From: Thermoproteota archaeon
Lineage (GTDB): Archaea > Korarchaeota > Korarchaeia > Korarchaeales > JAOZGB01
Length of the DNA: 64,000 nucleotides
Assembly (NCBI GenBank): GCA_037917685.1
Contig: JAVCBU010000003.1
Location: 160,001 to 224,000, forward strand
Reading direction: 5' to 3'
The position numbers and the translations under genes are program-made. Shown one piece after another: positions 5,109-21,389 of this stretch. The notes under the pieces were generated by a model. That model made no database searches and was not told the DNA's origin. It was given only the letters and a program-made list of their open reading frames with translations. The stretch's first letter is position 1, and each line of letters opens with the position of its first letter.

Positions 5109-7331
5109 ATGAAAATAAGGATACTCACCCCTTTAATAGTACTCCTATTGCTGTCGTTTTCATACTGGAAGATAAGGGAGAAGGCAGGAACCGAAACACC
5201 CGTCAATCCAGAGTCGCCTGAACCAACGGCTACCCCTACATCGGAGTTTAAAGAGTACTTCCCATCCCAGTTTGAACCTGAAAGTCTATCATACACTCCA
5301 AATGCGCCACAGTATCAGCTCCCCCTTGAACCTGTGTTGATCGAGAACTATGACAAGTTTCTCGAGTATATCCCACTCTCAGACGGCGCAATAGATAATA
5401 TAAGACAGTACGGCTTCACGATAATAGCCTCTCCCCACGATGACATAATTGAGGCCTGCAGGGACGTGAGTATGAGGGGAATACCCCTATACGTTACTGT
5501 TGACACAGTTCTGCATGTCTACCACATCCTATTTGATAACACCCTCCAGCAGATCGAGGAGGAAAGGTTCTACATGCTCCTAGAAGACCTTACTAAAAGC
5601 ATGCTGTCATCGATGGCTAACGAATACGAGGCAGCAACGGATCCTAGGCTTAAAGAAGCAGCGAGAAGAAACGTAGCCTTCTTCAGCGTTGCCCTATCCT
5701 TACTTAACCCGGACCACCATCCACCCGACTATGTTAAAAACGAGGTTGAAGGCGAGTTAGAACTTATAGGGGAGCACAGCGGTTTCTCCCCTAGTCCAAT
5801 ATTCCATTACAGGGAGGATTACAGCCAGTACGTGCCAAGAGGCCATTATACGAGGAGTGAAAAGCTTGGAAGATACTTCAAGTGTATGATGTGGTACGGA
5901 AGGATGGCATTCCTACTCAAAGGCTGTGAAGAATGCTTTGTTTCAAAAGAAGACGCCGAAATAGCTACAATCCAGGCCATAATGATCTCAGACAAGCTTT
6001 ACAAGGTTGACGTTAAGGGTAGAAACGCCATGGACATATGGCTTGAAATATACCAGGTGACATCTTTCATGGTAGGCTATGCAGACGACCTTACACCCAT
6101 CGAATACAAGCAAGCAGTAGACAGCCTTTACAACGGAAACTTCACCCTTGAAATGTTAGCCAGCAGCGAGGTACTTCTAAACATAAAAGCCGTACTCGCC
6201 CAAATGAGAAATCCAGAGATCTACGGTGGAACAGGAAGATGTAATGTAGAGCCGCCTATAACTGAGGAAAAACTCGACGAATGCCTCTCCAAAAGTAAGG
6301 GTATGAGGTTCATGAGTCAGAGATACGTGCCAGACTCGTACATCTTTCAAAGGCTTGTAGCCCCCTCCGTAGGGGCATATAGAGGCAGCGGTAAACCATT
6401 CACCATGGAATACACCGCACTCGGGCCTGCAAGGGTGTTCCCAAGGGGGCTAGACCTGATGGCTGTTCTAGGCTCAGACCTCGCGCTTGAAATACTGCAA
6501 GAGGAGGGGGACACTGAATACGAAAGGTACATGGATAAGATGTCTCAGCTCAGAGACGAGTTTTCATCCCTAACATGGCAGAATTGGCATAGAAACCTGT
6601 ACTGGTCATGGCTATACTCTCTAAAACCCCTCCTAGAAGAGTACGGAGACGGGTATCCAACCTACATGCAGACAAGGATGTGGGGTAAGCGTCTCCTGCA
6701 GACAGCGTTAGCCTCATGGGTGGAGCTAAGACATGACACAATCCTCTACGCCAAGCAAAGCTACACCCTGGTGTCGACTGCTGTTCCACCAGGCCCTGAA
6801 CCAGCAGGGTACGTTGAGCCAATTCCAGAGCTCTATAAGAGGCTGTCAGACCTGGCGAAAATGACCTGTAACGGCCTTAATGAGATGAATATTATTAATG
6901 AAACTGTATATGCAAAGTTCAAGTCTCTTGCAGATATACTTGACAAGCTTACTCAGATCTCGATTAAAGAACTGGAGTCCCAAGAGCTATCACCAGACGA
7001 ATACAACTTTATAGAGGCGCTTCCAGACCTGCTTGAAGGCATATGCACAGGTTATAAGGCTGAAACCCTCAAGACAACACTGGTAGCAGACGTACATACG
7101 GATATAAATACTGAAACCGTCCTTGAGGAGGCCATCGGGTACGTAGACCTTATTATAGTTGCGGTTAAACTCCCCGATGGAAAGATTATAATGATGGCTG
7201 GCCCAGTCCTATCATACTATGAGTTTAAACATCCTCTAAGCAGTAGACTTACGGATGAGGCATGGAGAGAAATATTAGACCAAAACCCGCCTGAAAGACC
7301 AAAATGGGCCTCCACGCTTCTAGGCGAGTAA
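5109..7331 (+). CDS. DUF3160-domain secreted/membrane-anchored protein
   Basis: EDYSQYVPRGHYT, ALASWVELRHDTILYAKQSY, GYVEP, GPVLSYYEF, RLTDEAW; N-terminal anchor. Confidence 0.9.
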   Translation: MKIRILTPLIVLLLLSFSYWKIREKAGTETPVNPESPEPTATPTSEFKEYFPSQFEPESLSYTPNAPQYQLPLEPVLIENYDKFLEYIPLSDGAIDNIRQYGFTIIASPHDDIIEACRDVSMRGIPLYVTVDTVLHVYHILFDNTLQQIEEERFYMLLEDLTKSMLSSMANEYEAATDPRLKEAARRNVAFFSVALSLLNPDHHPPDYVKNEVEGELELIGEHSGFSPSPIFHYREDYSQYVPRGHYTRSEKLGRYFKCMMWYGRMAFLLKGCEECFVSKEDAEIATIQAIMISDKLYKVDVKGRNAMDIWLEIYQVTSFMVGYADDLTPIEYKQAVDSLYNGNFTLEMLASSEVLLNIKAVLAQMRNPEIYGGTGRCNVEPPITEEKLDECLSKSKGMRFMSQRYVPDSYIFQRLVAPSVGAYRGSGKPFTMEYTALGPARVFPRGLDLMAVLGSDLALEILQEEGDTEYERYMDKMSQLRDEFSSLTWQNWHRNLYWSWLYSLKPLLEEYGDGYPTYMQTRMWGKRLLQTALASWVELRHDTILYAKQSYTLVSTAVPPGPEPAGYVEPIPELYKRLSDLAKMTCNGLNEMNIINETVYAKFKSLADILDKLTQISIKELESQELSPDEYNFIEALPDLLEGICTGYKAETLKTTLVADVHTDINTETVLEEAIGYVDLIIVAVKLPDGKIIMMAGPVLSYYEFKHPLSSRLTDEAWREILDQNPPERPKWASTLLGE
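7302..7329 (+). repeat. Direct repeat copy 1 (3' end of the DUF3160 gene)
   Basis: aaatgggcctccacgcttctaggcgagt matches 8611-8638 at 25/28, with an 18-bp exact core. Confidence 0.8.
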
Positions 7332-7544
7332 CAACATTCTTCCCACCTTTTATTCTTTCATTGTAAGCCGGAGGATGAAAGTCGACATGGGAACTAGTAA
7401 TTGAGGAATAGCTGGCTTTTAGGAGTCGATAGGGCCTATGAAATAGCAGAAATTGACGGGAAACCTTGCAGACTATGGTTAAAATACCAAAGCTTAGACG
7501 TCCGGTTCCGCGGTTAGAGTATTGTTAGAAAATAGCATGGACGG

Positions 7545-7979
7545 TTAGATTTGTCTTCCCCGTTTGCATATAATCCATCCATGCTTGAATCTTTTTATGA
7601 TGTTTGTCTTCTTCATTTTCATGAATATCTCACGCATTTCCACTACTGTTCCATCGTCGTATAGGATTATTCCGTCGTCCATTGCGTAAAGCGCTGTTGG
7701 ATGTGTGTGTTTAAGCATTCTCCTAAACTCTCTCGGTGTATATGCAAGGCATTCTATTGGAGCTGTAGTGTCGTTAAGCTCAGCCATCACCTTAAGTCTC
7801 TCATCTAGGCTTTCAGGTAGATTCTTAGCTATAACGATAATGTCTATGTCACTTCCAACCCCATAGTCTCCCCTGGCCATGGACCCGTATAGGATGATGG
7901 TGTTAGGCTTAAACGAGGCGACGATCTTTCCTATAAACCTTTCAATGTCCTCTTTATGCGGTATGTTGGGAATCTTCAA
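7545..7979 (-). CDS. Minimal nucleotidyltransferase (MNT-type antitoxin)
   Basis: IILYGSMARGDY..GSDIDII; YTPREF. Confidence 0.9.
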   Translation of the reverse strand: MKIPNIPHKEDIERFIGKIVASFKPNTIILYGSMARGDYGVGSDIDIIVIAKNLPESLDERLKVMAELNDTTAPIECLAYTPREFRRMLKHTHPTALYAMDDGIILYDDGTVVEMREIFMKMKKTNIIKRFKHGWIICKRGRQI

Positions 7980-8010
7980 TAGTAGCCACCTTACTCTTCA
8001 CAAACTGCGT

Positions 8011-8266
8011 TTACATACCTGGTTGGGATAGCTGGCTGACTAGCTCTGTTACATCTTTCTCAATTATACTACGAGGTGCGTCATACTCATCTACAAGCTT
8101 TACTATCGCCTCGTCGAAAGATAATCCGCTGAGCACGTATTCAACCGCCTTAGCAGCAGTCTCATTAAAGTATCTCTCCCAGAATAGGTTCCTTTTAGAA
8201 CCCCTTTAATGTGGAAGTCATCCGCAACCGTATTTTCCCTTCTAAAAATAGGTGGGGAGGGTTCAA
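8011..8266 (-). pseudogene. PqqD/RiPP recognition element (RRE) family protein, frameshifted
   Basis: Manual translation YFNETAAKAVEYVLSGLSFDEAIVKLVDEYDAPRSIIEKDVTELVSQL; probable TTG start at 8266 with AGGTGG upstream; span is 85 codons plus 1 nt. Confidence 0.65.
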
Positions 8267-8418
8267 TATCGCCACCTGATCGTTGCGTGTATATCAGCGG
8301 ACAGAGAATTCCACCTCACAATAGGTTGTATTACAGCAGATTTGCTACAGTATGCACAGCCTCCTATATCTCTTGTAGGGAACCTCGCAGCCGAAGGCTT
8401 TACCAATTTCCGCTTCAT
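8263..8418 (-). CDS. 51-aa Cys-containing peptide, candidate RiPP precursor
   Basis: MKRKLVKPSAARFPTRDIGGCAYCSKSAVIQPIVRWNSLSADIHATIRWRY*; its stop overlaps the RRE start (TTGA). Confidence 0.45.
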   Translation of the reverse strand: MKRKLVKPSAARFPTRDIGGCAYCSKSAVIQPIVRWNSLSADIHATIRWRY

Positions 8419-8610
8419 AGTAATCATACATATAACTAGTCAAGATATATGTTTCCATATGTCATATACACGCCTATACAAGGTTCTGTTAGAGGCCTAT
8501 CGTATCCGGGGGACTTTACATGTGAAGCATGGAATTATTACAGCCTCCCCATGCTTAGGACAGGCAGTTTTCCGCTTGTTCTCATCTTCCGTAATTCTTT
8601 GGTCCTAGTC

Positions 8611-8638
8611 AAATGGTCTCCCACGCTTCTAGGCGAGT
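8611..8638 (+). repeat. Direct repeat copy 2
   Basis: aaatggtctcccacgcttctaggcgagt; encodes KWSPTLLGE versus KWASTLLGE at the DUF3160 C-terminus. Confidence 0.8.
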
Positions 8639-8702
8639 GGCACTCAGCTCTTCAGCTTTCAGTATATAATCATTTTATCATTCCAAAGCAGAGTTATATG
8701 GT

Positions 8703-9596
8703 TTGGTGGGTGGGGTGAATTTCAAACTCGCCGTTAGCCTCCTTTTAAACATCATACTCCTCTCCACCCTGCTTAATCTCTACATCGTGAACCAGAGACT
8801 GAAAGCAGATGTTGAACTAGTAGCCGAGCAGAACCGGAATCTTTCGATGGAGGTTGACAGACTTATGAAGCAGGTTGAAATATTGAATCTAAAGATAAAA
8901 TACTACGAGGACATAGCCAAGCAGGGAAACGCCTTTGTACCATACGGGGAAGTCGTAGGCTCATCAGAGATGTACGTCTCAGCCGTTAGGACGGTATCCT
9001 ACGGCTTCTTCAACTATGAATACGAAGGTGTAATACTTATACTTAAAGTGGAGCTGAGGGAGGGTGAAGGCCGAGTACTCGTGAACACGAAGCCAAAGAT
9101 AGGGATAGAACTCCAAGCGAGCGCTGAAGAAGCATTCCTCGCCGCGGAGAAATATCTAGCTGTAAACCTGTCCAGCTACGATGTGATCATTACCATAGAG
9201 GCAGGTGAGCCTGTTGAAATAGTAGACGGCCCAAGCATAGGCTCAGCAATAGCTGTGTCCATAGTCTCAGCATACACCGGGAAACCAGTACGGGGAAATG
9301 CCATTGTAACCGGAACAATCAGCAGGGACGGGCGTATAGGTCCAGTAGGCGGAGTCGCGGAGAAAGCCATTGCAGCAGCGGAGCAAGGCATGGAACTATT
9401 CATCGTCCCAAGAGGCCAAGAGTACGTTACAATCTCAGTCCCCAGAACATATAAGGCAGGCCCAGGCATAACCATAACATACTACGAGTACAGACAGGTC
9501 TCCCTCCAAGAATACATTCTAAGCCACGGCTACAACATGACTGTAACATCAGTTTCAACCCTATCAGAGCTTGTAGAACTATTAATAAGCGGATAA
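8703..9596 (+). CDS. Membrane-anchored Lon-protease-like (S16) serine protease without ATPase domain
   Basis: N-terminal TM and coiled coil; VDGPSIG (Ser) and TGTI...GPVGGVAEKA (Lys) dyad. Confidence 0.85.
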   Translation: MVGGVNFKLAVSLLLNIILLSTLLNLYIVNQRLKADVELVAEQNRNLSMEVDRLMKQVEILNLKIKYYEDIAKQGNAFVPYGEVVGSSEMYVSAVRTVSYGFFNYEYEGVILILKVELREGEGRVLVNTKPKIGIELQASAEEAFLAAEKYLAVNLSSYDVIITIEAGEPVEIVDGPSIGSAIAVSIVSAYTGKPVRGNAIVTGTISRDGRIGPVGGVAEKAIAAAEQGMELFIVPRGQEYVTISVPRTYKAGPGITITYYEYRQVSLQEYILSHGYNMTVTSVSTLSELVELLISG

Positions 9597-9604
9597 CAAA
9601 ATCC

Positions 9605-9644
9605 AACCTTAACAAACTCATACATCCATGAGTTTGTTAAGGTT
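9605..9644. terminator. Perfect 17-bp inverted repeat just downstream of the protease gene
   Basis: aaccttaacaaactcat-acatcc-atgagtttgttaaggtt; terminator function is inferred. Confidence 0.5.
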
Positions 9645-9658
9645 ATTGAGGTGTTTGT

Positions 9659-9719
9659 TATTGACACTCCCAATCTCCAGGACAAAACCTCCCGACTTTA
9701 GTCGTGGGGAGTGTCAATA
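9659..9719. mobile_element. IS200/IS605-type end remnant / miniature palindromic element
   Basis: 13-bp terminal IR (tattgacactccc / gggagtgtcaata) enclosing the hairpin cctcccgactttagtcgtgggg followed by tgtcaa. Confidence 0.55.
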
Positions 9720-9865
9720 TAAGTTTCTTCGTGTAGTCTCACCTTAAAATCTCTCAGTAGCTCATATACACGTCTAAACATGTAACTTTCAAACACGCTT
9801 TCACCCGCTAGGGTGGCTCCCCAGTCGAAGAAGATCCACTTCAAAATAGAAAGTCTTGAGATCAT
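9698..9865 (-). pseudogene. HAD-superfamily hydrolase N-terminal fragment
   Basis: MISRLSILKWIFFDWGATLAGES (motif I-like); frame runs into the IS-like end and stops. Confidence 0.55.
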
Positions 9866-9929
9866 TCAATGTACCAAATACTTCTTTACTTTCTTTAATA
9901 TTCAAATTCATAGGCTTGTACTGTGCTCC

Positions 9930-10193
9930 CTACGTAGGTTTACCTTTCCTTTTCAGCTCTTCTTCCATTACTACTATTTTTATCTCTCTAATTCTCTTTA
10001 GTTTTCGATCGTTTGTTACGAACGCGTCGGCATTCTCACCCAGGGACGCCCCTACTTGCAGGGCGTCGGGTGGCCTAATATCGTATTTGGCCCTGAGTTC
10101 TGCTGCCTTCTCAGCCACTTCAGTGTCTATAGGCCTTATCTTCAGGTTTGGGATGAGGAGTACATAGTTTAAGCCGTTCAGCAGCTGCTCCAC
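9930..10193 (-). pseudogene. PIN/VapC toxin, C-terminal half only
   Basis: AEKAAELRAKYDIRPPDALQ...FVTNDRKL; N-terminal DT motif absent. Confidence 0.75.
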
Positions 10194-10356
10194 ATAGAGA
10201 CGTCATGGCCAAGTCGAAGTCATAGTCCTCGGTAGCCCCAAAGCCTTCCCTTATGATTTAGAAATTTGAACTTCCAGGCTCCAGCCCTATGTTCATAGTG
10301 AGCTGCCTGCCCTTTTCTCTTCCATTTTAATCGTTGACAAGTTGCCTCAGTTTGAT

Positions 10357-10379
10357 GTAAGATGTAAGACGTAAGATTT
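10357..10379 (+). promoter_or_regulatory. Three tandem GTAAGA(T/C) heptads abutting the TATA box of the AbrB-PIN operon
   Basis: gtaagat gtaagac gtaagat then ttatattt; probable antitoxin operator. Confidence 0.45.
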
Positions 10380-10415
10380 ATATTTTCGGGTTTCTTCTAG
10401 CTATAGGGGGCTTTC

Positions 10416-10679
10416 TTGGTTGAGTATAAGGGTAGGGTTTCAAGTAAGGGTCAGATAGTTATCCCTAAGGAGCTTAGGGAGAGGTATGGGTTTAGACGGG
10501 GTGTTGAAGTGGTGTTTAGGCCGTATGGGAAGTATAAAATTATTATTGAGCGTCAGCCCACGTTAAGTGAGCTTTTCGGATTCCTCGGAGATGCTAGGGC
10601 TACCAGAGTACTGGATGAGGAGAGGGGTAAGGAGGCTGAGTCTGAGGCTGAGAGGGAGGAAGAGCTGGTGAACCCGTGA
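10416..10679 (+). CDS. AbrB/MazE/SpoVT-family antitoxin
   Basis: RVSSKGQIVIPKELRERYG. Confidence 0.9.
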   Translation: MVEYKGRVSSKGQIVIPKELRERYGFRRGVEVVFRPYGKYKIIIERQPTLSELFGFLGDARATRVLDEERGKEAESEAEREEELVNP

Positions 10680-11146
10680 TGAACAGGCTTGTCTTCGACA
10701 CAGGCCCGTTCCTCCTGCTCTTCACCAGAGAAGAGGGATCTGAAACTGCAAGAAATATGGTTTTGATGCATGAGAGGGGACACCTGGAAATATACATGCA
10801 CCCAAACAATCTTGCTGAAGCATATAGGGTTATAGGTAGAATTAGAAGTGAACAGTCTAGCCTGCTGATCAGGGATATCACCCCTGATGAAGTTGTGAGA
10901 TCTGCCTATGCAACCCTAAAGGTGGTAAGCAACGTTGAGACGACCCTAGCCTTAGGCTTTCTAAAACACAAGTATAGCTCAAAGCCGTGGGGAGACCTCT
11001 CATCGGCAGCCCTATCAATAAGCCTGTCAAAAAGGGGAGTGAATGCCCCAGTAGTTATCCTAGACAGGGAAAAACATTTTGAAGACATAGAAGAAGTGGA
11101 GGCAGTTAAAATATCCAAGTTACCCAAGGTTATACCCACCCAGTAG
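10676..11146 (+). CDS. vapC: PIN-domain (VapC-like) toxin
   Basis: LVFDTG, NLAE, WGD, LDREKHF; overlaps the antitoxin stop. Confidence 0.8.
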   Translation: MMNRLVFDTGPFLLLFTREEGSETARNMVLMHERGHLEIYMHPNNLAEAYRVIGRIRSEQSSLLIRDITPDEVVRSAYATLKVVSNVETTLALGFLKHKYSSKPWGDLSSAALSISLSKRGVNAPVVILDREKHFEDIEEVEAVKISKLPKVIPTQ

Positions 11147-11562
11147 TCATTCAAGAAGGAAGCAATGCCCGCAACAACATGTTATCCAGCAGCTTAATCT
11201 TATAGCTGGCCCGGCTTAGTTAAGATGCCGCCAGCAGGATGACATCCCATAAAAGTTACATAACACTCTTAGAAACATTTCAAGAAGGCGACTCTCAGAC
11301 TTTAAACTAACGCCACATTACAACCAGCTAGCTATAGCCGTCAAACTACAGTCAAGCTTTAGAAGGGAGGCATGGATTCACACGGTTAGTCCAGCCTAGG
11401 CTGTCCTCATCAAGAGATATACGAAATAAAATGTTTATTTTATCCTTTCAAACTTACAGAGGCGGGGGTTTAAGATCCCCGGAGACCGTTGGATTCTACA
11501 ATTTCCCACAGGGCGGAAAGAGAATCAAATGTTTAAATATTTCGCTTCCTAAACTAGACTTG

Positions 11563-12579
11563 ATGCGTGTAAGCAAAGTACTAATACTGTTTCTTATGTT
11601 CCTAGTCCTAGCAGCCTTCATATTAGTAACCTGGAGAAAGAGGAGTAAAGGCATATCAGAGAATCTAGCAGGCAAGGTACTCTGTAACATTGTCTATAAT
11701 ACTGTGGACGGTGTAAATCTGAGGCTGGACATATATTACCCTGAAGATATTGGAAGCCAGCCTCTGCCAGCCGTTGTCTATGTACATGGAGGGGCATGGG
11801 TCTCAGGAAGCAAGGAGGGGGGTTCCGGGATGCGTGACCTCCACGCTCTTGTGGAGAACGGCTTTATAGGAGTATCCGTAGATTACAGGCTTGCTCCTGA
11901 ATATGGGTTTCCAGCCCAGATAGAAGATGTTAAATGTGCGATAAGATTTCTAAGGGAGAATGCTGAGAAATACCATGTTGACCCGGATAGGATAGGTATC
12001 ATGGGTACAAGCGCCGGGGGGCACCTTGCAGCGCTCGCCGGGCTCGCTGACGAGTCCTGCGGCTTTGATGTTGGGCCTTACCTGGAGCAGTCGAGCAGAG
12101 TACAGGCTGTAGTTGACATGTTCGGCCCAGCAGATCTCACAGTGGTGCCAGAGGACAAGAGGGAGCTGATAATAGGGGTTTTCAAATCCGTAGACCCGGA
12201 GACGCTTGCCTGGGCCAGCCCTATCACCTACATTTCACCGGATGACCCCCCATTCCTGATAATCCACGGGGAAAACGACCGTGTGGTCGATGTTAACCAG
12301 TCAATCAGGCTTTATGAAGCTTTAAGACAGGCAGGCGTGGAGGTAACTCTGGTCATCGTCAAAAAAGCCGGACACGGTCTCAAGCCCTCAGGTGGAACCC
12401 CAGAACCAAGTCGTAGCGAGGTAACAGCTTTAATAGTTAAATTCTTCGCTGAAAAACTTAGCCTCCGACATAGATCACAACTATACTCGATTTTCGGCAG
12501 CCTTCACCCAGTGAAAGTATTGAATGCCCAATTTAATCTGTGCGAGACGCCTGTAAAGCGGTATGCAATGATACCTTAG
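11563..12579 (+). CDS. Secreted alpha/beta-hydrolase (esterase/lipase, HSL-like)
   Basis: HGGAW, GTSAGG, HGEND, AGHG; likely ATG at 11563 with TATA near 11532 (track ORF starts at 11431). Confidence 0.9.
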
Positions 12580-13127: not shown

Positions 13128-14855
13128 ATGAACCCTGAATGCTTTTTACGTGTCCTCCCCCTGTTCCTAGCCATGCTGATCCTGTATACACCTGCTTACA
13201 CGGTTGTTTCCCCTCCAAGCCTGCTTGTTTTGGCAAATTCGGTCGACTACAGCCTTGCTGGGGGCTTGTTCGACTACCTCGAGGCTGAGGGAGTTAACTA
13301 TACCCTGATCCAGCTCCCTGGGGACGAGTTGAACCCTGAATGCTTGGATGAGGACATGGCAAGATTTGACGAGGTTAAGGCGGGCTACAGAGTGATCCTG
13401 ATACTCGGGGGCCACAAAGCATACGGGTGTGTCGGGTTTATAGTTGGTGGCATTCTGAATGAGAGTGAGAAGCGAACACTGGAGCGGGAGGGAAGCGTCG
13501 CCGTTTTCGTCAAGAGGGACGTCTGGGCTGAGGGGCAGACCGTGCTTGTAGCCGCGGGTAACACTAGAAATGAGACGTGCGAGGCCCACCTTTACTGCAG
13601 AGAGATGGTCAGGGACATAGTTAAGTATACGTTGCTGTACGTGATACCCCATGACCTTGACGGATACCCTGATCCATACAGTGTCTGGGAGCCCCCTGGC
13701 TCAGACTTCAATAATGTAACGGTGCCTGGTGGGTACTCTTCAAGGGTATGGCTTATAGAGGGCGAAACCTTCGTAGTTGCAGCAGTATTGGACATGGGAA
13801 CAGAAGACAAGGCTATAGGTGCGTACAGGAATCTCTCCAGAGGCCACAACGAGACCTCAATAGACATCGGAGAAGAGGGATTCTACGACGAGGAGAACAG
13901 CAGCCTCGGAACGGTAGGCTTCAGACTCGTAGGATTCAGAAGAGGGAGATGCGTGGCGATAGTCGGCGGAGGAATACTCAGCAACACCTCAACTCCACCT
14001 TCAAGAAGCCTACTGACAGACCTAGCACGGAGAATCGACGACGAGCTTCAACACAACATACGATGTGTATTCGAAGGTGACATAGCCCTAATCCTATCAG
14101 TCCAAGCCGTGCCCCCAGTGAGACATGGCGGAGGCGAGCTACAGGCTCCGATAGGCGCGCCTGTCAAGGTTACGTCGAAAACAATAAAGGTGAATATGAT
14201 AGGTGCTGGCGCGAACCAGGGGAAAAGATACGTCGGCTACATAAAGCTAAGATTCAACGTATCAGAGATCGGACGGGCCATGGAGTGTCCCGAGGGATGC
14301 CCTTACCTTGAGGTAAGGGTTTACATCATGGAGATCCACATAGACAAGAAGGCCGACGATGGAGACGACAGGCTATTCAGAGACGGTTGCGACCCCATGA
14401 TAGGCGGGACAATAAACCTCTACTTCAAATGCCACGGCGAGTTACTTGAAGCGAAGCAGCTAAGGTTCGTGACAGCGCAACTCAGGGGGTTAGACGGCAA
14501 GGGACACACAATAACCGAATTCTATAACGGGAGAACCATGTACTCAATCCGAAAATACATCAATAAAACCACCGGATGCGCTGATGAGATAACTGTCACA
14601 TGCGACCTCCTTCTGAGAGACAGTGACGACGGCGATCTAGCCGACATCCTAAACGTTATAGTCAGCCTTGCTTTGAAGAAGGCAGGCGCAGGAAAGGCTG
14701 CTGGAGCCGTCCCAAAGCAAATAAATACACTGAAGAAAAAGGGCAGGGACACAACTGGGCCTAAGCCGTTCCAAATACTCAGAAGTATAAGTGGGAACGA
14801 CGTGGGGGAAGCCCACCTAGAGCAACCAACAAAAATATATCCTCCAGAGGAGTAG
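13128..14855 (+). CDS. Secreted multidomain surface protein of unknown function
   Basis: Signal peptide; N-terminal LANSVD...ILILGGHKA...AAGNTRNET surface domain; acidic beta-rich C-terminal domain. Confidence 0.7.
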   Translation: MNPECFLRVLPLFLAMLILYTPAYTVVSPPSLLVLANSVDYSLAGGLFDYLEAEGVNYTLIQLPGDELNPECLDEDMARFDEVKAGYRVILILGGHKAYGCVGFIVGGILNESEKRTLEREGSVAVFVKRDVWAEGQTVLVAAGNTRNETCEAHLYCREMVRDIVKYTLLYVIPHDLDGYPDPYSVWEPPGSDFNNVTVPGGYSSRVWLIEGETFVVAAVLDMGTEDKAIGAYRNLSRGHNETSIDIGEEGFYDEENSSLGTVGFRLVGFRRGRCVAIVGGGILSNTSTPPSRSLLTDLARRIDDELQHNIRCVFEGDIALILSVQAVPPVRHGGGELQAPIGAPVKVTSKTIKVNMIGAGANQGKRYVGYIKLRFNVSEIGRAMECPEGCPYLEVRVYIMEIHIDKKADDGDDRLFRDGCDPMIGGTINLYFKCHGELLEAKQLRFVTAQLRGLDGKGHTITEFYNGRTMYSIRKYINKTTGCADEITVTCDLLLRDSDDGDLADILNVIVSLALKKAGAGKAAGAVPKQINTLKKKGRDTTGPKPFQILRSISGNDVGEAHLEQPTKIYPPEE

Positions 14856-15460: not shown

Positions 15461-18400
15461 TTACTGTGTCACCAGTATTGTTTGTGAACTGGTTTGATAT
15501 CTGTTCTCCGGGTTATAATAGTCCTGTACACTTGCCGGCGGCACTGTTGCCTTGAGAGGGTACTTGGCTTGGATTTTAAACTGGAATGTAAACGTTACAC
15601 CTGGCTTTATAGCCCCTGTTAGGAAGTCTATCCTTGTGGGGCTATGTACTTCGTATCTTTCGAGGTATGGGGATGTGCTTATAGCCTCTTCGAGTGAGGT
15701 AATGTTTACTGTGAAGCCTGGTGGGAGGCCTATTGTTATGAACAGCATGTTTATGGTTGGGAGTTGGCCTGTGATGCTTGGTATTCCGAGGTATGCCACG
15801 TAAACCTTTACCGTTACAGTTCCGCCCTGGCTTATCATGGTGCTGTCAAGCTCCCTCCTAATGATGAGAGGCTTGTCTGAGACTGTTATTCCAACAGGGT
15901 TCCCAACCGCTACAGGTCTTCCTTCTATGAGCGCCGCCGGCCCTGGGAAAATGTAGTCTCCTGGTATCAGGCCTGTAGCCTCGTATTCTATGACAGCCGT
16001 GCCTCCAGGCTCAACTGTGACATGGAAGGTTAAGACACCCTTGTCCAGCTGGCTGGGCGAGGTGTTTGATATGAAGCCTGCTGGTAGGGGGTCTCTTATC
16101 CGGAGTGTTAGAGTTCTATGCTCCCGGTTTGTCACGGTTAGCCTGACCTTTACGGGGACTCCTACCATTGTTACGGGTATGCCTGCGATGGTTTCAACAT
16201 GCTTCTCCACCGTTATCCTCCTTTCAACGCCTTCCCCAGCTATGCTTACCATGGCTGGGTTCGCCTCAGCCTTCAGGTTTCCCCCGTATCTCCCCTGGTA
16301 CAGGAGCATGTACTCCACGGTGGGGTTGATGGTGTAGGTTCCCTCCTCCTCCGCCTTGAAGTATAGGGTGACGGTTTCAGGCTCTCTTAGCTCTGTGATG
16401 TACCTTGTCCCACCCCCGAGAACCTGCAGGCCCATTGGGGGCCTAACTGTGACCCTCACCATCACAGGGGTGAGGTCTCCTCCCGGAGGGGTGACGGTAA
16501 CGTTTAACTGGAATATTTCCCCCCTTCTAGCCCTCTGGTTCAGCGGGGTTGCTAAGCATGTGACGTTGTCTCGCAGCCACTGCCTTACGACAAGCTGGTA
16601 CATGAATAGGCCTTTCCCCGTAAGCCTGATGGTTACATTGTTCATGCCTGTCCGTAGCCATGCTGCTATGGGGAATATTCTCTCAACGTCTGAGGTTTCG
16701 GGTGTTACATGTTCGCTGTACGCTAGGAGCCCGTTTACTGTTATGGTTATGGTTGCGTCTGCTTCAGCTACCCCCTTCCTCTCTGCAATCCTTACTAGGA
16801 GCTCTAGGAAGCCGCATGTGTCGCTTGTGGTTCTTATCCATCCTCCTGGGGATCTGTGCTTAACAAGCCAGTCCACTATTTTCCTAACCATGTCATGGTG
16901 TCCTCCAGCCATTACTAGGGCTATCCCGGCGTAGGCCGTGTTTTCGGTGTCGCCCGCGAAGCTGCTGCCCTTAGGAAAGTGTATTCCATATTCGTCTTCG
17001 ACGGCGAGGCTTAGAAGGCTGCTTACAGCCTTCTCCAGCGCCTGGTCGCCCTCCGGGACGTCTGCAAGCTTGAAGCATACTATCGAAAGTGCTAGGCCAT
17101 ACGAGTCTTCAATCCTGTCATGTAGAACTCTACTTCTAAGGTAGTTCAGTGCTTTCGCAACCTTTGGGTTTTCAGGTGGCACCCCCGACCTCAGTAAGCC
17201 CCTGAGTACGAAGCCTGTCATCACGAACTCGTCAGGCTTATAGGAGCCGTGCCCGTAGAACCCTACTGGCGGGAAGCTTCCATCCTGGTTCTGCTGCTCC
17301 ATTATCCATGCCTGAAGCCTTTCTACAACCCTGTCGTCAATGTCAAACCCGGCCTTTTCGGCTTCCCCAAACGTGTTCAGGATCCAAGCAGACATTCCAA
17401 GGTTGTCCTCGTCCGTTGCATACCAGCCCATGCCCCCCGACGGGTGCTGCCTCGAAACAAGGGTTTGGAGGCCTGTCTGAGCGTAGGCTTCCAGTTTAGC
17501 CCTTAACTCCGGTGTTAGCTTTCCCTCCCTGTCAAGGTAGTTTAGGATGAGGATGTCAGGTATGAGCCTTGAAGAAACCTGCTCGTTGCACCCTCCGGGG
17601 AATCCTATGAGGGCTTCTAGGCCGCCGATGAACATCGACTCGTAGCCTGGGGATATTCTTACAAAGGCTTCCGTGGCATTTCTAATTGCTTTTGGATGAA
17701 CGAGGAAGGCTTCTGAGACATCTGATTTTAGATCCCCGTTCCTATTGATCTCCATGGGGAGGCCGTTAGGCTCGACTTTAACCTGCCTTCTAACCGCGTC
17801 CAACCTGTCAGCCGCCTCAGCATAGACTGTCAAGTAGTGTAGGCCGGGCTCTAACGCCTTAATCCTCCAGTAGACACCCATCACAGAGTTGGCGGGAACG
17901 GTAACCCGCTTCCCCCCATCATCCAATAGTCTAAACCATTTTTCAGGCTTAATTCTCAGTGTAGCATTTAGCTCCCTTCCTGCATAGTTGTATACAGCTA
18001 CCCTTAGGGATATCTCATCGTCCTGGGTAAGCCTAAGCGGGATGTCCGGTTCCACGAAGAAGTCCTTGAAAACCCTTATGGATCCCTGCCCGACGGCTAT
18101 CCTCCCATCCTTTGTCGATGCTATGGCCTTCACACTCCAGGTGGTGATCGTATGTGCCATCACCAGGTTTACCTCTGCATGCCCGGATACCGGGAGGGAG
18201 GGGCTCCAGAACAGTGTTTCAGGGAAGAACCATCTAACCTCCTGGGCTGCTGATCCAGCTTCCCGGCTGCTCGCCTCCTCATATACTTCCTGGTCCCCAC
18301 CAGCTACCTCTGGAGCCACCCCCTTCCTAACAAACTCAGGACCCATCATGACCGGCCTTGGAACCCCCCATCTCTCGACAAGTATGCCTCCCCGAGGTCT

Positions 18401-20548
18401 AAATATTATGGTGTAGAGCACCATTGCTGAGGGCAGTGCTATCGGTACTTGTAGGAGCAGGCCTATGGCGACGAGAACCTTTCCCCGGCTCTTCCTCCCG
18501 GTCAGTAAGTAGTATAGCCCTGCAAGTAGTGCAATCGTTGGTGTAGCTGCGACACCTGATATGCCGGCTAATATCATGGCTGTGTTTATCCTTTTTTGAA
18601 GGTTTTCAGCCCTTTGAATCTCCATCTGCAGGCTTGAAAACTCGTTTACGGACTCAAGTTCATGTATCTCCCACTGTACTTCCTGATACTCCTCTGAAAG
18701 CGTGTAGAAAACCTCTTCGAAGCCCGGCCTCTGCTCTGCCAGGGCGAGGAGCGAGCTGTCCACTATGGATATGCAAACTACGCAGTCTCTAACTTCGTTC
18801 CCGTCAGCGTCTGAAACCGCTATTCTGATGCGGCAGTCTTCACCCGGCAGGTATTCATCCTTGTCGGGCTCAACCTCTACCTTCATATCCCTCTTAGGCT
18901 GGACGTCAACCTTTAACCAGTCTGCGTAGAACTCCATGTCAGGGCCTATGGCGTAGGCCCTTACCAGGACGTAGGGTGCGTAGGTGTCTAATGCTACAAT
19001 TTTAAACTCTGCAACCCCGTCTTCAAGCCTTTCCGAACCAGTGTATAGTGTTGACTTGTCCAGTGGGCTTATTACATCCAGGTAAACCCATTTCGAGCTG
19101 ACATTTAGGCTTGGCTCCTTAACAAGTACCTTTATGTCCATCTCTTCACCCACCTTGTAGGATGGCTTGTCGCTTCTAACCCATACTATAAACCTTTCAC
19201 CCATGGTTTTCGACCTGAAGCTGAAGCTGTACTCCCCATAGTACCCCTGAGCATCAAGGCATCTGGCTAGGAGCATGATCTCCCCGGTGTCCGGCGGCGC
19301 TATAGACAGTGATGCTACCCCGGCCTGGTCTGTTAGGAGGGTGTGCCTGGACAGGAGGCTTCCGTTCCCGGTGAGCACCTCAACATTTAACGTTGTATTC
19401 CCTACAGGTTTACCATCGGGATATCTGACCACGAAGTATATTGGGTAATCTTCTCCGGGCATGAACTCTTTCTTCAACGTTACAGCTCCAACTATGAATG
19501 GTGTGTCACTTATCACAAGCTTCCTGGATGCCGTCTCTACATGTCCTGAGCCGTCGATCACGCTTGCATTCACCACGATCTCAGCCTTCCCTCTTGAAAT
19601 GTCCAGGCCTACCAGGTATGATGGTGCATCAAACGTGAAGCTCATAAGGCCTTCCCTGTTTGTGCTACCATAGTACTGCCACACAGTTGTCCATTCCCCG
19701 GTGTATGCCTGCACGCTTAAAGTTACGTTTCCAACTACGGGCTTACCGAAGAAGTATGAAGCGTTAACCCTTCCATAGATCTTCTCGCCTAGAAGATACC
19801 ACTTCTTCTGGAATTCAAGCTCAACCTTGAACTTGGGAAGGACGTATTCCCTGATGTTCACAGTAACTTCCTGTGTATAGTCTCCTATCTCAACCCTAAC
19901 CCTATATCTACCCTGTTTCAGCTCTTTTGAAAGCGGTATGTTGCAGAAGGCAACGCCATACTCGTCCGTTTTAAGGAATCGCTTAAATACCCTTACACCG
20001 TCGGGGTTTACAAGGCTAACTGTAAGGCTGGTGTTTGGGCAGGCCCTATAATCCCCGTTCGCCTCCCAGACCAGCGCTCTAAAATGTAGAGTCTGACCCG
20101 GCTGGTACCAAGGTTTATCGGTGGTTATAAGAACCCGGAAAGACCTCCGGATCCTAACTGGAACCTCAACCCTTCCCTCCATGACACCTGAAGCCTTCAC
20201 CACAAGCTTGTAGGCACCCGGTTCGATGTTTGGCACCCTAAGTGACGCGTAGAGCGAACCATCATCGCCGGTTAAACCTTTAAATACCGGTGCAACCTTT
20301 GACCCGTTACTGTTAACAAGGTAAGCCTCCACCCTAGAGCTGACCGGGTTAGAGGCCGCCATGCTGAATGTCAAAACCTTCACAGATACGTTTCTACCTG
20401 GAACCCAGATTTCTGGGGCAACCACGCTTACGCCAGGCTTCAATACAAGCAAAAGCCTTCCAGTGTTGGACAATAGTAAAACCATGGTGAAAAACACCAA
20501 TACAGCGAGAATAACCTTCCTTTCCATACAATTCTTCCACCCCTGCAA
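15461..20548 (-). CDS. Alpha-2-macroglobulin-family thioester-containing protein, membrane-anchored
   Basis: TDKPWYQPGQ, EYVLPKF, VRWFFPETLFW, DFFVEPDIP, thioester PGGCNEQ, TTSDT, C-terminal IGLPPGF...VQDYYNPE. Confidence 0.93.
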   Translation of the reverse strand: MQGWKNCMERKVILAVLVFFTMVLLLSNTGRLLLVLKPGVSVVAPEIWVPGRNVSVKVLTFSMAASNPVSSRVEAYLVNSNGSKVAPVFKGLTGDDGSLYASLRVPNIEPGAYKLVVKASGVMEGRVEVPVRIRRSFRVLITTDKPWYQPGQTLHFRALVWEANGDYRACPNTSLTVSLVNPDGVRVFKRFLKTDEYGVAFCNIPLSKELKQGRYRVRVEIGDYTQEVTVNIREYVLPKFKVELEFQKKWYLLGEKIYGRVNASYFFGKPVVGNVTLSVQAYTGEWTTVWQYYGSTNREGLMSFTFDAPSYLVGLDISRGKAEIVVNASVIDGSGHVETASRKLVISDTPFIVGAVTLKKEFMPGEDYPIYFVVRYPDGKPVGNTTLNVEVLTGNGSLLSRHTLLTDQAGVASLSIAPPDTGEIMLLARCLDAQGYYGEYSFSFRSKTMGERFIVWVRSDKPSYKVGEEMDIKVLVKEPSLNVSSKWVYLDVISPLDKSTLYTGSERLEDGVAEFKIVALDTYAPYVLVRAYAIGPDMEFYADWLKVDVQPKRDMKVEVEPDKDEYLPGEDCRIRIAVSDADGNEVRDCVVCISIVDSSLLALAEQRPGFEEVFYTLSEEYQEVQWEIHELESVNEFSSLQMEIQRAENLQKRINTAMILAGISGVAATPTIALLAGLYYLLTGRKSRGKVLVAIGLLLQVPIALPSAMVLYTIIFRPRGGILVERWGVPRPVMMGPEFVRKGVAPEVAGGDQEVYEEASSREAGSAAQEVRWFFPETLFWSPSLPVSGHAEVNLVMAHTITTWSVKAIASTKDGRIAVGQGSIRVFKDFFVEPDIPLRLTQDDEISLRVAVYNYAGRELNATLRIKPEKWFRLLDDGGKRVTVPANSVMGVYWRIKALEPGLHYLTVYAEAADRLDAVRRQVKVEPNGLPMEINRNGDLKSDVSEAFLVHPKAIRNATEAFVRISPGYESMFIGGLEALIGFPGGCNEQVSSRLIPDILILNYLDREGKLTPELRAKLEAYAQTGLQTLVSRQHPSGGMGWYATDEDNLGMSAWILNTFGEAEKAGFDIDDRVVERLQAWIMEQQNQDGSFPPVGFYGHGSYKPDEFVMTGFVLRGLLRSGVPPENPKVAKALNYLRSRVLHDRIEDSYGLALSIVCFKLADVPEGDQALEKAVSSLLSLAVEDEYGIHFPKGSSFAGDTENTAYAGIALVMAGGHHDMVRKIVDWLVKHRSPGGWIRTTSDTCGFLELLVRIAERKGVAEADATITITVNGLLAYSEHVTPETSDVERIFPIAAWLRTGMNNVTIRLTGKGLFMYQLVVRQWLRDNVTCLATPLNQRARRGEIFQLNVTVTPPGGDLTPVMVRVTVRPPMGLQVLGGGTRYITELREPETVTLYFKAEEEGTYTINPTVEYMLLYQGRYGGNLKAEANPAMVSIAGEGVERRITVEKHVETIAGIPVTMVGVPVKVRLTVTNREHRTLTLRIRDPLPAGFISNTSPSQLDKGVLTFHVTVEPGGTAVIEYEATGLIPGDYIFPGPAALIEGRPVAVGNPVGITVSDKPLIIRRELDSTMISQGGTVTVKVYVAYLGIPSITGQLPTINMLFITIGLPPGFTVNITSLEEAISTSPYLERYEVHSPTRIDFLTGAIKPGVTFTFQFKIQAKYPLKATVPPASVQDYYNPENRYQTSSQTILVTQ

Positions 20549-20659
20549 ATTGGATTAAAAGTTATACTATAACTTCAACAAACGTTAAACCATAACCCCT
20601 AAGCCTAAGCTCCCCACAAGAACTACATATTATCCATAGTCTAGCCGTGGGGAAGCAGG

Positions 20660-20726
20660 AAATGTAAAGAATGAGGTTAAATGAATGAGGTTAAATGATG
20701 ATAAATGTAAAGAATGAGGTTAAATG
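20660..20726 (+). repeat. Short nested direct repeats
   Basis: aatgaggttaaatg x3; aaatgtaaagaatgaggttaaatg x2 (20660-20683 and 20703-20726). Confidence 0.8.
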
Positions 20727-21040
20727 GTTGGTTCAGCAGGGTACATATACTGTTTTTCATTGCCATCCCATTTCTCAGATATTGAGTACTCTGGAAATCT
20801 CCTAGTGTTAAACAGGCACTGGCAAAGCGGATGTGGGGCAAATATATCTCCATAGTATGCCAGGCTAGCTATTCTGCATCGGCCTGCGCATAAATCCTTC
20901 ACGTTGCATATCTCACATACACCCTTTAAACGGCTCTCTATGTTCCTGTGGAGTTCACTCTAAGTTCGTTAAGGTTCTTCCTATACATGACCGTCTCCCC
21001 TTATGATTTCATGCGAAGCCTTGGTAGCTTGATGTTTTTA
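20720..21040 (-). pseudogene. Internally deleted radical SAM/SPASM maturase
   Basis: Fragments ATKASHEIIRGDG, VMYRKNLNEL and LKGVCEICNVKDLCAGRCRIASLAYYGDIFAPHPLCQ. Confidence 0.8.
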
Positions 21041-21068
21041 TAGAAACGTTGTATAAACGCATCACCAA

Positions 21069-21280
21069 ATTATAACTGCATCCACTATCACATATTAACC
21101 CATATCGCAACCTACGCCGCAAATTCCAGTTTCTTTTATTAGTTCTTTAACTCCTTTCTTTTATCCCTCAACGCTTTCCTCACCCCATGGAGCACCTTGC
21201 TCACAACCTGGTATACGCTTCAATCCGGATGAGCATCCAATACTACAGGTTGGTTGCATCACTACTATATTCTTAAACAT
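21069..21280 (-). pseudogene. Decayed tandem Cys-motif peptide genes (candidate RiPP precursors)
   Basis: MFKNIVVMQPTCSIGCSSGLKRIPGCEQGAPWGEESVEG* (21280-21161), then IKETGICGVGCDMG and, one frame over, LICDSGCSYN. Confidence 0.55.
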
Positions 21281-21389
21281 GTCCTTTCCATCCTTTATTT
21301 TGGGTCAATGGGGTACTTATCCCTTTTATATAAATTGATCTGATAACTGGTTTAGCGAAAGTTTTAAAGGATGAGAGGTCTACCTGTGT

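Follow-up and report, generated by a model that had tools for sequence, protein, structure and literature searches.

The open reading frame at 15461-20548 on the minus strand of the window (the whole 64,000-nucleotide stretch of DNA analysed here) encodes a full homologue of the thioester A2M/TEP proteins, composed of MG domains, a bait-region domain, an A2M domain, a thioester domain (TED), and a receptor-binding domain (RBD). This A2M homologue carries a transmembrane-type helical hairpin in its bait slot. In our reading, the protein belongs to the A2M/TEP/complement family, works on the cell surface as a protease trap with a thioester, and is fastened to the archaeal membrane at its trigger; we assign this reading a probability of about 0.6.

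Domain architecture of the protein

The translation in the list of open reading frames is free of stops over 1,695 codons. The database copy of the protein (P0002) starts with ATG, and the gene in Table 1 is counted from there. An alternative TTG start at 20548 gives 7 extra residues; residue numbers in this text count from the TTG unless marked as ATG numbering.

The domains MG2, MG3, MG4, A2M_BRD, A2M, TED, and A2M_recep pass their Pfam cut-offs, with the MG ring being represented by MG2 (E value of 2.4e-29), MG3, and MG4. A scan of the protein against NCBIfam gave no meaningful family. Two AF2 models of the protein have pLDDT values of 80.4 and 89.4, and the best Foldseek matches are CD109, C4b, A2ML1, and C5, with E values down to 3.5e-45 (CD109, 9fx3). 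By sequence and structure comparison, the fold resembles CD109, C3/C4/C5, A2ML1, and A2M. The thioester motif is intact: the G, C, E, and Q of GCNEQ are invariant in 63 aligned sequences, and the N is kept too in 5 close relatives.

The hydrophobic segment at the N-terminus is also present in P0003, P0004, and P0006, the three other full-length archaeal relatives. A hydrophobic anchor at the C-terminus was not found, with no Kyte-Doolittle (KD) window of at least 1.6 past residue 716 and a C-terminus reading ...SSQTILVTQ. For the extra beta-sandwich region located before the receptor-binding domain, Pfam gives just a weak BatD/DUF11-like match.

Table 1. Features of the gene, in window coordinates, with the evidence for each
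Feature	Position	Strand	Evidence and remarks
Whole gene, thioester A2M/TEP homologue	15461..20527	-	Stop codon included; 1,688 aa counted from ATG at 20527
N-terminal hydrophobic signal or signal-anchor, MERK and about 16 hydrophobic residues	20441..20527	-	KD peak 2.29; AF2 helices 2-20 and 22-29
MG1 to first part of MG6, including Pfam A2M_BRD; predicted extracellular N-terminal lobe	18740..20440	-	Pfam; AF2 beta-sandwiches, pLDDT mostly 80-97; Foldseek
Helix-1 motif AEQRPGFEEVFY..EYQEVQWEIHELE, family-wide element outside the membrane insert	18653..18739	-	Mean pairwise identity 0.83 (7 archaeal sequences)
Helix 2 ("stalk"), 24 residues, predicted continuous with TM1	18581..18652	-	AF2 helix 632-676 (ATG numbering) runs into TM1; identity 0.34
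TM1, 26 residues (657-682), predicted outside to inside	18503..18580	-	KD peak 1.86; AF2 helical
Loop TGRKSRGK, residues 683-690, predicted cytoplasmic	18479..18502	-	Charge pattern, positive-inside rule
TM2, 26 residues (691-716), predicted inside to outside	18401..18478	-	KD peak 2.11; AF2 helix 681-709 (ATG numbering)
Variable disordered linker, 54 residues, RPRGG...SAAQE, candidate bait/trigger	18239..18400	-	Identity 0.25; pLDDT about 30
Pfam A2M domain (MG7 region), immediately after the FPET motif	17954..18217	-	PF00207, E 2e-17; genome search gave the same place
Thioester motif GCNEQ	17579-17593	-	Coordinates checked; thioester Cys is Cys987
Thioester domain TED	16796..17626	-	PF07678, E 1.4e-28; AF2 alpha/alpha toroid, model residues 202-490, pLDDT about 90
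Extra beta-sandwich domains, about 237 residues, between second CUB half and receptor-binding domain	15851..16561	-	AF2 strands, model residues 564-800, high pLDDT
C-terminal receptor-binding (MG8) domain	15494..15754	-	PF07677, E 6.4e-8, 33.6 bits against a cut-off of 21.7

A helical hairpin in the bait slot

The hairpin lies in the bait slot, because the Pfam domain A2M_BRD (PF07703, residues 457-603) ends before it and the A2M domain (PF00207, residues 778-865) starts after it. At the downstream border, HMMER aligned the query "..RWFFPET" with "RkYFPETWIW" of human A2M. The earlier note on this DNA had placed two hydrophobic helices and the loop TGRKSRGK between IVDSSLLAL (residues 595-603) and VRWFFPET (at 771), and this is borne out; the quoted strings are all present, and its interval of 18400-18590 brackets the hairpin at 18401-18580.

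We called the TM segments from hydropathy, charge pattern, conservation, and AF2 helices. The 19-residue Kyte-Doolittle means average -0.04 +/- 0.63 over the whole protein, and only four stretches in the 1,695 residues reach 1.6, namely TM1, TM2, the N-terminal anchor, and a marginal strand at residue 586 (1.68). In AF2, the two hairpin helices are separated by a turn and followed by a region with pLDDT below 50 (710-766, ATG numbering); the confidence in the helices themselves is moderate, with block means of 62-74. Following the positive-inside rule, by which a basic loop marks the cytoplasmic side, the loop TGRKSRGK is placed in the cytoplasm.

The flanks of the hairpin were only partly as described before. 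A Gly/Glu-rich linker does lie downstream, and helices lie upstream, but the first 29 residues of the proposed stalk (AEQRPGFEEVFY..EIHELE) are no part of the inserted module, the same motif being found in TM-less homologues. The pattern PGF..(F/Y)F.LE.E...P.YEIH follows VD..(V/L).AL in every homologue for which the insert was printed, including four TM-less ones of the Acidobacteria type. This helix-1 motif has a pLDDT below 50 in the AF2 half-protein model. Nor does the slot hold a short bait in this family; it measures at least 160 residues in 136 of 136 aligned homologues, with a median of 357.

The linker between TM2 and RWFFPET is rich in Gly, Glu, and Pro and is the least conserved of all segments, with its length varying by indels between 46 and 61 residues among the archaeal relatives. 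Variable in both sequence and length, as baits are, and disordered in the model, it is a candidate for the real bait.

Conservation of the hairpin and its neighbourhood

The hairpin is kept in all seven archaeal relatives. TM1 is 26 residues long in each of them, with no D/E and at most one K/R; TM2 spans 24-26 residues and has no acidic residues; and the loop of 7-8 residues contains 3-5 K/R and no D/E (7/7 for each). Sequence identity in the helices is just 0.37, while length and overall hydrophobicity hold in all seven. Judged from the alignment, such low identity with conserved length and hydrophobicity is the pattern of a lipid-facing anchor.

The neighbours of the gene are a metallophosphoesterase, an MBL-fold protein, a 575-aa open reading frame without a Pfam match, and an S9/esterase. 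There is no pbpC, transglycosylase, or transpeptidase neighbour in the window or beside the relative L017, and no linked protease, PBP, partner, or regulator gene adjoins the gene in either place. This neighbourhood comparison rests on collection scans that yielded two loci each.

Membrane inserts at the same slot in other homologues

The survey of homologues for TM segments at this position, which the earlier note had suggested, gave the hairpin in the archaeal relatives as described above and showed that bacterial homologues repeatedly have inserts there, with two to eight helices. When the first 500 residues served as the seed of a search, 13 of the 120 matches listed had 2 or 6-8 TMs at the slot, and TM-like segments occur in 51 of the best 150 profile-search matches. 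The helix number is odd in 15 of the 51 TM-bearing representatives by a rough count, which, if real, would leave one lobe outside the membrane and the other inside in those proteins; we think that these are miscounts. A rough hydropathy filter returned 73 homologues with TM-type stretches before R..FPET, and in all 73 a spacer of 21-146 residues follows the last stretch. Ten Acidobacteria-type rows with one or two hydropathy segments were set aside as probable false positives, and the printed rows of this type (P0055, P0067, P0105, and P0115) have Gly-rich stretches in soluble inserts of 356-371 residues. A lipobox-like L-x-[GAS]-C after the last helix was matched by regex in 7 of the 73 TM-bearing homologues, none archaeal (e.g., P0012, P0177, P0218, and P0224), and was rejected as a general feature of the slot, being restricted to a bacterial subclade.

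The six-helix type of bacterial A2M-like protein includes P0035, P0075, P0077, P0078, P0101, P0102, P0137, and others. With hhalign, the archaeal hairpin and linker match the last two helices and linker of the bacterial six-helix insert with a score of 44.8 and a probability of 88%, compared to 12-20 in 7 of 7 controls with reversed or block-shuffled sequences. The same program found no match of the archaeal insert to a three-sequence bacterial hairpin set or to a two-sequence Planctomycete-like set. The AU test does not reject the placing of all 28 TM-bearing rows, a group named after tree inspection, in one clade (p 0.214); in free trees the TM-bearing rows fall in three to four places, with the archaeal clade alone on a long branch. 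A search of the protein atlas with the insert reached no score above 0.80, and its results count only as leads. Four weak PF00207 matches were seen within the phylum, with E values of 1e-4 to 1e-3 on open reading frames of 423-878 aa.

As a tentative scenario, against which we see the odds as clearly leaning, membrane helices may have entered the bait slot once, in an ancestor from which both the six-helix bacterial forms and, in reduced form, the archaeal hairpin descend; the membrane-embedded trigger would then be an old alternative design of thioester protein and not a peculiarity of one lineage. The archaeal protein could then act as a complement-like sentinel, in which a cut in the linker close to the membrane would unlatch the tethered thioester lobe, which would covalently tag the protease, a virus particle, or an attacking cell at the membrane, in the manner of a primitive, cell-autonomous archaeal opsonin.

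Proposed topology and mechanism

For the membrane-sewn protease trap that we favour, we infer the following topology and order of events. The N-terminal signal or anchor would export the MG1-MG6 lobe, TM1 would bring the chain back to the cytoplasm, where the 8-residue basic loop would lie, and TM2 would export it again. The lobe composed of MG7, CUB, TED, and RBD would also lie outside, since TM2 re-exports the chain, and the hairpin would form a tether in the middle of the chain. The 54-residue disordered linker from TM2 to RWFFPET may act as the bait. A foreign protease cutting it would free a new N-terminus of the C-terminal lobe, which would rearrange as in other A2Ms and C3 and expose the putative Cys-Gln thioester of GCNEQ. 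The exposed thioester would form a covalent link with the protease or with material close by. After cleavage, the complex would stay on the cell, because the lobes would be interlocked at MG6 and the N-terminal lobe would keep the hairpin; once the linker is cut, the C-terminal lobe may come partly free of TM2.

Alternative explanations

An artefact can practically be dismissed, whether it were a chimera of the assembly, which the earlier note had proposed to exclude by read coverage, a pseudogene with a frameshift, or foreign DNA inserted at this point; nothing was found in its favour. The frame is open throughout; two Logan contig sets of 19-21 kb, possibly from the source sample, span 17900-19100 in one piece with no differences and with word depths at the site of 252 and 364; and seven independently assembled relatives, 42-72% identical across the hairpin region, have the same layout. 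The hairpin is no assembly artefact. We consider it quite unlikely that both hydrophobic helices are instead buried inside the molecule, perhaps within the cavity at the centre of the MG ring, so that the protein is anchored by the N-terminus alone or secreted. In solved A2Ms the bait-region domain threads through this cavity, and burial would fit the only moderate AF2 confidence in the helices and the composition of TM1, which is rich in Gly, Ala, Thr, and Pro and with a KD of 1.86 comes near the 1.6 threshold. However, two acid-free 26-residue stretches with a basic, acid-free loop occur in 7 of 7 relatives, their sequences drift while length and hydrophobicity are kept, and the four to eight helices that other relatives have at the slot are too many for the interior of a ring.

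Another reading takes TM2 as an internal signal sequence that is removed, or cut after, by signal peptidase. The mature protein would then consist of two chains: the N-terminal one would finish with a membrane anchor, and only non-covalent contacts would hold the C-terminal lobe. The hairpin would serve biogenesis and processing and form no lasting tether of the trigger. C3, C4, and C5 are processed into chains at the equivalent site, TM2 is laid out like a signal sequence with a basic n-region (RKSRGK) and a hydrophobic core, and the lipobox-like motif of the bacterial subclade follows the last helix. The seven archaeal sequences, however, have no Cys and no conserved small-x-small site after TM2, and a hydrophobic stretch of 24-26 residues has TM length and exceeds the usual core of a signal peptide. 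Split or shortened versions of the archaeal protein did not turn up either at E values up to 1e-5, although this counts for little, given how difficult it is to tell fragments from splits. Taken together, this makes processing at TM2 rather unlikely. A surface protease sensor, in which cleavage of the bait would free the hairpin for intramembrane proteolysis or signal across the membrane, appears very unlikely. The trigger is physically joined to membrane helices, the six-helix bacterial relative P0078 is named a zf-HC2 (anti-sigma-type) domain protein by its source, and the hairpin relative P0253 starts with a Cys/His-rich stretch that we took by eye as zf-HC2 type. Yet the sole cytoplasmic part predicted for the archaeal proteins is the loop of 7-8 residues, and no linked regulator or site-2-protease gene lies nearby. 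The coupling to signalling or intramembrane proteolysis that the earlier note had put forward is therefore unsupported, because there is no cytoplasmic domain to act as an output.

Comparison with known systems

In the literature searched, no description of membrane helices in an A2M bait slot was found, in line with the earlier note, which did not know this architecture from described A2Ms. The slot seems to tolerate even membrane helices. Bacterial relatives with two to eight slot helices are common in metagenomes and form a large group for which no description was found in the literature, and a result on topology and cleavage would therefore inform this large group. In an archaeon that has no outer membrane, such a design would keep the trap, of 190 kDa, attached to the cell together with its prey. 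It is a candidate open to testing among the surface defences of archaea, of which little is known.

Human A2M and A2ML1, CD109, and insect TEP1 share the same order of MG ring, bait-region domain, FPET, MG7, CUB, TED with CxEQ, and RBD, and, among solved structures, eukaryotic monomeric thioester A2Ms match best in sequence (E values of 5e-46 to 2e-36). The eukaryotic proteins have a soluble bait loop, whereas the archaeal protein has two TM helices in the slot, an N-terminal anchor, and about 237 extra beta-sandwich residues before the RBD. CD109 is also held at the membrane, but through a C-terminal GPI anchor, and the archaeal protein has no C-terminal hydrophobic signal.

Type I bacterial A2Ms have an N-terminal lipid anchor and are usually paired with pbpC. 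Escherichia coli YfhM (ECAM) and Salmonella SaA2M are likewise monomeric prokaryotic thioester traps on the cytoplasmic membrane facing outward, with the same presumed role of guarding the envelope against foreign proteases. Unlike them, the archaeal protein has no lipobox Cys (no Cys in the first 40 residues) and no pbpC neighbour, and its predicted anchor is a hairpin in the middle of the chain. Similarity to the type I proteins is weak and covers the MG2 stretch only (4rtd, E value of 3.6e-7; 4u48, E value of 7.1e-6), and the bMG10 score of 25.5 bits is under the Pfam cut-off of 26.2. The bacterial six-helix A2M-like proteins have TM helices at the same slot and then a spacer before R..FPET, as in the archaeal protein, which differs in its host, in lacking a lipobox-like Cys, and in having two helices where they have six to eight.

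The statement in the earlier note that A2Ms are soluble, lipid-anchored, or GPI-anchored is incomplete. The TM helix of Drosophila Mcr is at the C-terminus. In the accessible part of its description, Mcr, a protein of septate junctions, is an A2M-family protein with its own TM segment (PMC8006247), and Pseudomonas aeruginosa MagD is, according to the excerpt available, tied to the membrane through its TM partner MagB (PMC5764988). Makarova et al. 2021 list archaeal A2M homologues, and the accessible portion of that article does not mention bait-slot helices (PMC8416519). A preprint on the CAGE complex (10.1101/2025.09.22.677704) is, from its available text, unrelated to the bait-slot hairpin. 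Neither Mcr nor MagD-MagB has a helix in the bait slot, unlike the archaeal protein.

In complement C3, C4, and C5, the stretch that corresponds to the one from VD...AL to FPE(T/S) carries an anaphylatoxin domain and the site at which the chain is processed. These proteins share the insertion hot spot with the archaeal protein, and their thioester tags surfaces, but their insert is soluble and released, and the archaeal protein lacks an ANA domain. A2M, TEP, and complement proteins are soluble or end-anchored traps in which the trigger is a free loop. A trigger threaded through the membrane would alter the geometry of activation, with the cut being made within a few nanometres of the bilayer, and would alter what remains attached after cleavage.

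Domain structure of the protein and its gene neighbourhood

The A2M gene is one long open reading frame (ORF) without an internal stop, giving 1695 residues from a TTG start or 1688 from an ATG at 20527, the ATG form being that of database protein P0002. Pfam recovers a complete alpha-2-macroglobulin domain set, an NCBIfam scan of the protein yielding nothing beyond it, and the G, C, E, and Q of the thioester motif are invariant across a 63-sequence alignment. The closest sequence among solved structures is human A2M (HMMER E 5e-46), followed by A2ML1, CD109, TEP1, and C3, with E. coli YfhM (E 3.6e-7) and Salmonella A2M (E 7.1e-6) being far weaker matches. The Foldseek match of the N-terminal model to CD109 (9fx3, E 3.5e-45) agrees with the sequence search. 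The C-terminal 929 residues are predicted by AlphaFold2 to adopt a confident fold (pLDDT 89.4) with MG7, CUB, an alpha/alpha TED, and the receptor-binding domain (RBD), the last preceded by extra beta-sandwich domains that follow the second CUB half. The sole Pfam match of the extra beta-sandwich is weak and BatD/DUF11-like.

Convergent with the A2M gene lies a 575-residue ORF with no Pfam match at E ≤ 0.001, and a few kb downstream several genes in succession probably encode secreted or hydrolytic proteins: DUF3160 (740 residues, E 8e-201), a protein with a Lon_C-type protease domain, and a BD-FAE/S9-type hydrolase. On the other side, about 840 bases, holding no ORF of at least 80 residues in the ORF list, separate the A2M start from a divergent metallophosphoesterase gene. 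A metallophosphoesterase and MBL pair is also found near the A2M gene at a relative's locus (L017), with an ECF-transporter module and a SAM_HAT gene in between.

Features of the A2M protein and its surroundings. Residues are counted from the TTG start; identity is the mean pairwise identity of seven archaeal sequences, to which the lengths and compositions of the slot segments also refer.
Feature	Residues	Window	Strand	Basis	Identity	Length and composition
Run of putative secreted or hydrolytic proteins		5109-12579				
575-residue ORF		13128-14855	+			
A2M ORF		15461..20548	-			
MG2	139-220			Pfam		
MG3	234-306			Pfam		
MG4	364-421			Pfam		
A2M_BRD	457-603			Pfam		
Flank before slot					0.59	
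Helix-1 motif (AEQRPGFEEVFY..EIHELE)					0.83	29 residues
Helix 2 (helix-1 motif to TM1)					0.34	23-24 residues
TM1	657-682	18503-18580	-	hydropathy	0.37	always 26 residues; no D/E
Loop TGRKSRGK	683-690	18479-18502	-	sequence	0.43	7-8 residues; 3-5 K/R, never D/E
TM2	691-716	18401-18478	-	hydropathy	0.37	24-26 residues; no D/E
Linker (TM2 to RWFFPET)					0.25	46-61 residues, with indels
Flank after slot					0.80	
A2M	778-865			Pfam		
TED	975-1251			Pfam		
Thioester motif GCNEQ		17579-17593	-	sequence		
Extra beta-sandwich domains		15851-16561	-	confident model		about 237 residues
A2M_recep	1599-1685			Pfam		
Gap before metallophosphoesterase gene		20549-21389				

A hydrophobic hairpin in the bait slot

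The earlier note had described two hydrophobic helices joined by a basic loop between IVDSSLLAL and VRWFFPET, and every string that it quoted is found in the translation. Hydropathy peaks at 1.86 in TM1 and 2.11 in TM2 against a protein mean of -0.04 +/- 0.63, about 3 standard deviations up, and reaches at least 1.6 in only four stretches, namely, TM1, TM2, the N-terminal anchor, and one marginal strand. The hairpin follows the end of A2M_BRD and precedes RWFFPET, which pairs with RkYFPETWIW of human A2M in the HMMER alignment and thus places the hairpin in the bait slot. In an AlphaFold2 run on residues 1-900 with a 65-sequence alignment (mean pLDDT 80.4), the stalk and TM1 form a single long helix (632-676, here counted from the ATG), followed by a turn and the TM2 helix (681-709), with block pLDDT values of 62-74, while residues 710-766 fall to about 30.

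Since length and hydrophobicity are held and the sequence is free, TM1 and TM2 appear to behave as lipid-facing anchors, and the charge pattern of the loop fits the positive-inside rule. The linker, being variable, of mixed charge, and predicted to be disordered, is the most bait-like part of the slot. A pattern PGF..F.LE.E...P.YEIH is recognisable after VD...AL in every homologue whose insert was inspected, including four without a real TM; because the same motif occurs in these TM-less homologues, the helix-1 motif belongs to no inserted module. Of the Glu/Gln-rich stalk in the earlier note, the first 29 residues are this helix-1 motif and the rest is helix 2, which runs into TM1 in the AlphaFold2 model.

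The hairpin is real and conserved. Two public contig sets each span positions 17900-19100 with one unbroken contig (21 and 19 kb), with zero differences and word depths of 364 and 252 (possibly the source sample). An assembly artefact is ruled out by these agreeing sets and, more tellingly, by relatives with the same hairpin: P0003, P0004, P0005, and P0006 carry it at 45-70% identity over residues 560-800, and it recurs in partial genes of two relatives' genomes (G003 and G004), so that it is kept in 7/7 archaeal sequences. The insert query matched 4 of the 43 species genomes available for the window's phylum; PF00207 is strong in three of these, the gene in the fourth being cut by a contig end, and has four further weak matches in the 43.

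Slot inserts in the wider family

Among the 120 listed of the 376 matches to a search seeded with the first 500 residues, which is blind to the slot, 97 have no slot helices, 5 are archaeal hairpin proteins, and 8 have six to eight slot helices (P0035, P0075, P0077, P0078, P0096, P0101, P0102, and P0137). A further 10 show one or two hydropathy segments and were taken as false positives, the four inspected (P0055, P0067, P0105, and P0115) being Gly-rich stretches in soluble inserts of 356-371 residues. A slot-seeded search, biased to hydrophobic words, added two-helix and six-helix bacterial forms, and the 16 further proteins aligned from it bring the slot alignment to 136 proteins, all with a motif-to-motif spacing of at least 160 residues (median, 357).

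Searching 1.84 billion representatives with a profile built from four archaeal slot regions gave 1800 matches at E ≤ 1e-3, of which 487 reach ≤ 1e-10 and 2 reach ≤ 1e-30. In a rough helix count on the best 150 of the 1800, 83 have no TM-like segment, 51 have such segments, and the motif heuristic failed for 16, among which inspection revealed further hairpin forms (P0138, P0222, and P0245). The 51 TM-bearing representatives were roughly counted as having one (6), two (10), four (5), five (1), six (19), seven (7), eight (1), nine (1), or twelve (1) helices.

In most homologues, of Acidobacteria type (P0025-P0136), the insert is soluble, spans 350-400 residues, and in many carries a CarboxypepD_reg-like domain according to precomputed Pfam lists. 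Judged from these sequences, the bait slot is a general insertion hot spot in this homologue family. A bacterial hairpin subclade (P0012, P0014, P0016, P0177, P0218, P0222, and P0224) combines an N-terminal lipoprotein-type signal and a TRRRR-type loop with a lipobox-like L-x-[GAS]-C that immediately follows the second helix; a regular expression finds this motif after the last helix in 7/73 TM-bearing homologues. Such a layout resembles a lipoprotein signal placed inside the bacterial protein, and cleavage there could leave two chains, anchored by lipid or by helices. In P0163, P0196, P0233, P0258, P0276, P0281, P0096, and P0022, the last slot helix ends in an LLP.(L/F).RAREAAR-like sequence. 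Many Planctomycete proteins have a prepilin-type N-terminal helix with a similar end.

Origin and possible action of the membrane insert

Insert columns were excluded from both trees. With FastTree on 136 rows, a long branch leads to the archaeal clade, the TM-bearing rows are scattered over at least three positions, and a two-helix subclade is nested within a six-helix clade. In a quick IQ-TREE run on 53 rows, the TM-bearing rows occupy four positions, and the four archaeal sequences group with P0138 and P0245 (SH-aLRT 100). An AU test did not reject a single group of all 28 TM-bearing rows (p 0.214), this group having been named after a tree was seen and non-rejection being no proof. With hhalign, the archaeal hairpin and linker pair with the last two helices and linker of the six-helix insert over 109 columns (score 44.8, probability 88%), against scores of 12-20 for seven reversed or block-shuffled controls. 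Taken together, these results suggest that the membrane inserts are likely to share an ancestor.

Given the export signal at the N-terminus and the even helix count, both large lobes would lie outside the cell, with only the eight-residue loop predicted to lie inside. The earlier suggestion that bait cleavage is coupled to signalling or intramembrane proteolysis has no support, as the protein has no cytoplasmic domain and no linked regulator or site-2-protease gene nearby. In our reading, the hairpin would be a mid-chain tether, and the linker after TM2 would act as the trigger. A protease cutting the linker would free the N-terminus of the C-terminal lobe; this may then allow TED movement and thioester reaction, both of which cleavage permits in A2M and C3, and the complex would be held on the cell by the interlocked MG6 and the hairpin. 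Cleavage of the chain after TM2 by a signal peptidase is conceivable but less likely, the archaeal sequences having no conserved site there.

Comparison with known A2M-like proteins

A membrane-embedded bait slot recurs among thioester A2M-like proteins, and the archaeal protein has a two-helix version of it. The earlier note called the architecture unfamiliar among described A2Ms, and we found no paper describing TM helices in the bait slot, although Figure 3A of Makarova et al. 2021 (PMC8416519) may show TM segments. According to that work, archaeal A2M homologues carry CxEQ, differ in domain layout, and have "typically a predicted signal peptide"; its tables label arCOG08038 a "putative membrane-associated protease inhibitor". 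Other membrane connections are described for MagD, which is tied to the membrane via its TM partner MagB (PMC5764988), and for Drosophila Mcr, listed as a transmembrane A2M-family protein (PMC8006247). In sequence, the archaeal protein and the surrounding bacterial family are much nearer to animal A2M/CD109/TEP (E about 1e-46 to 1e-36); the studied enterobacterial A2Ms match the archaeal protein at E about 1e-7.
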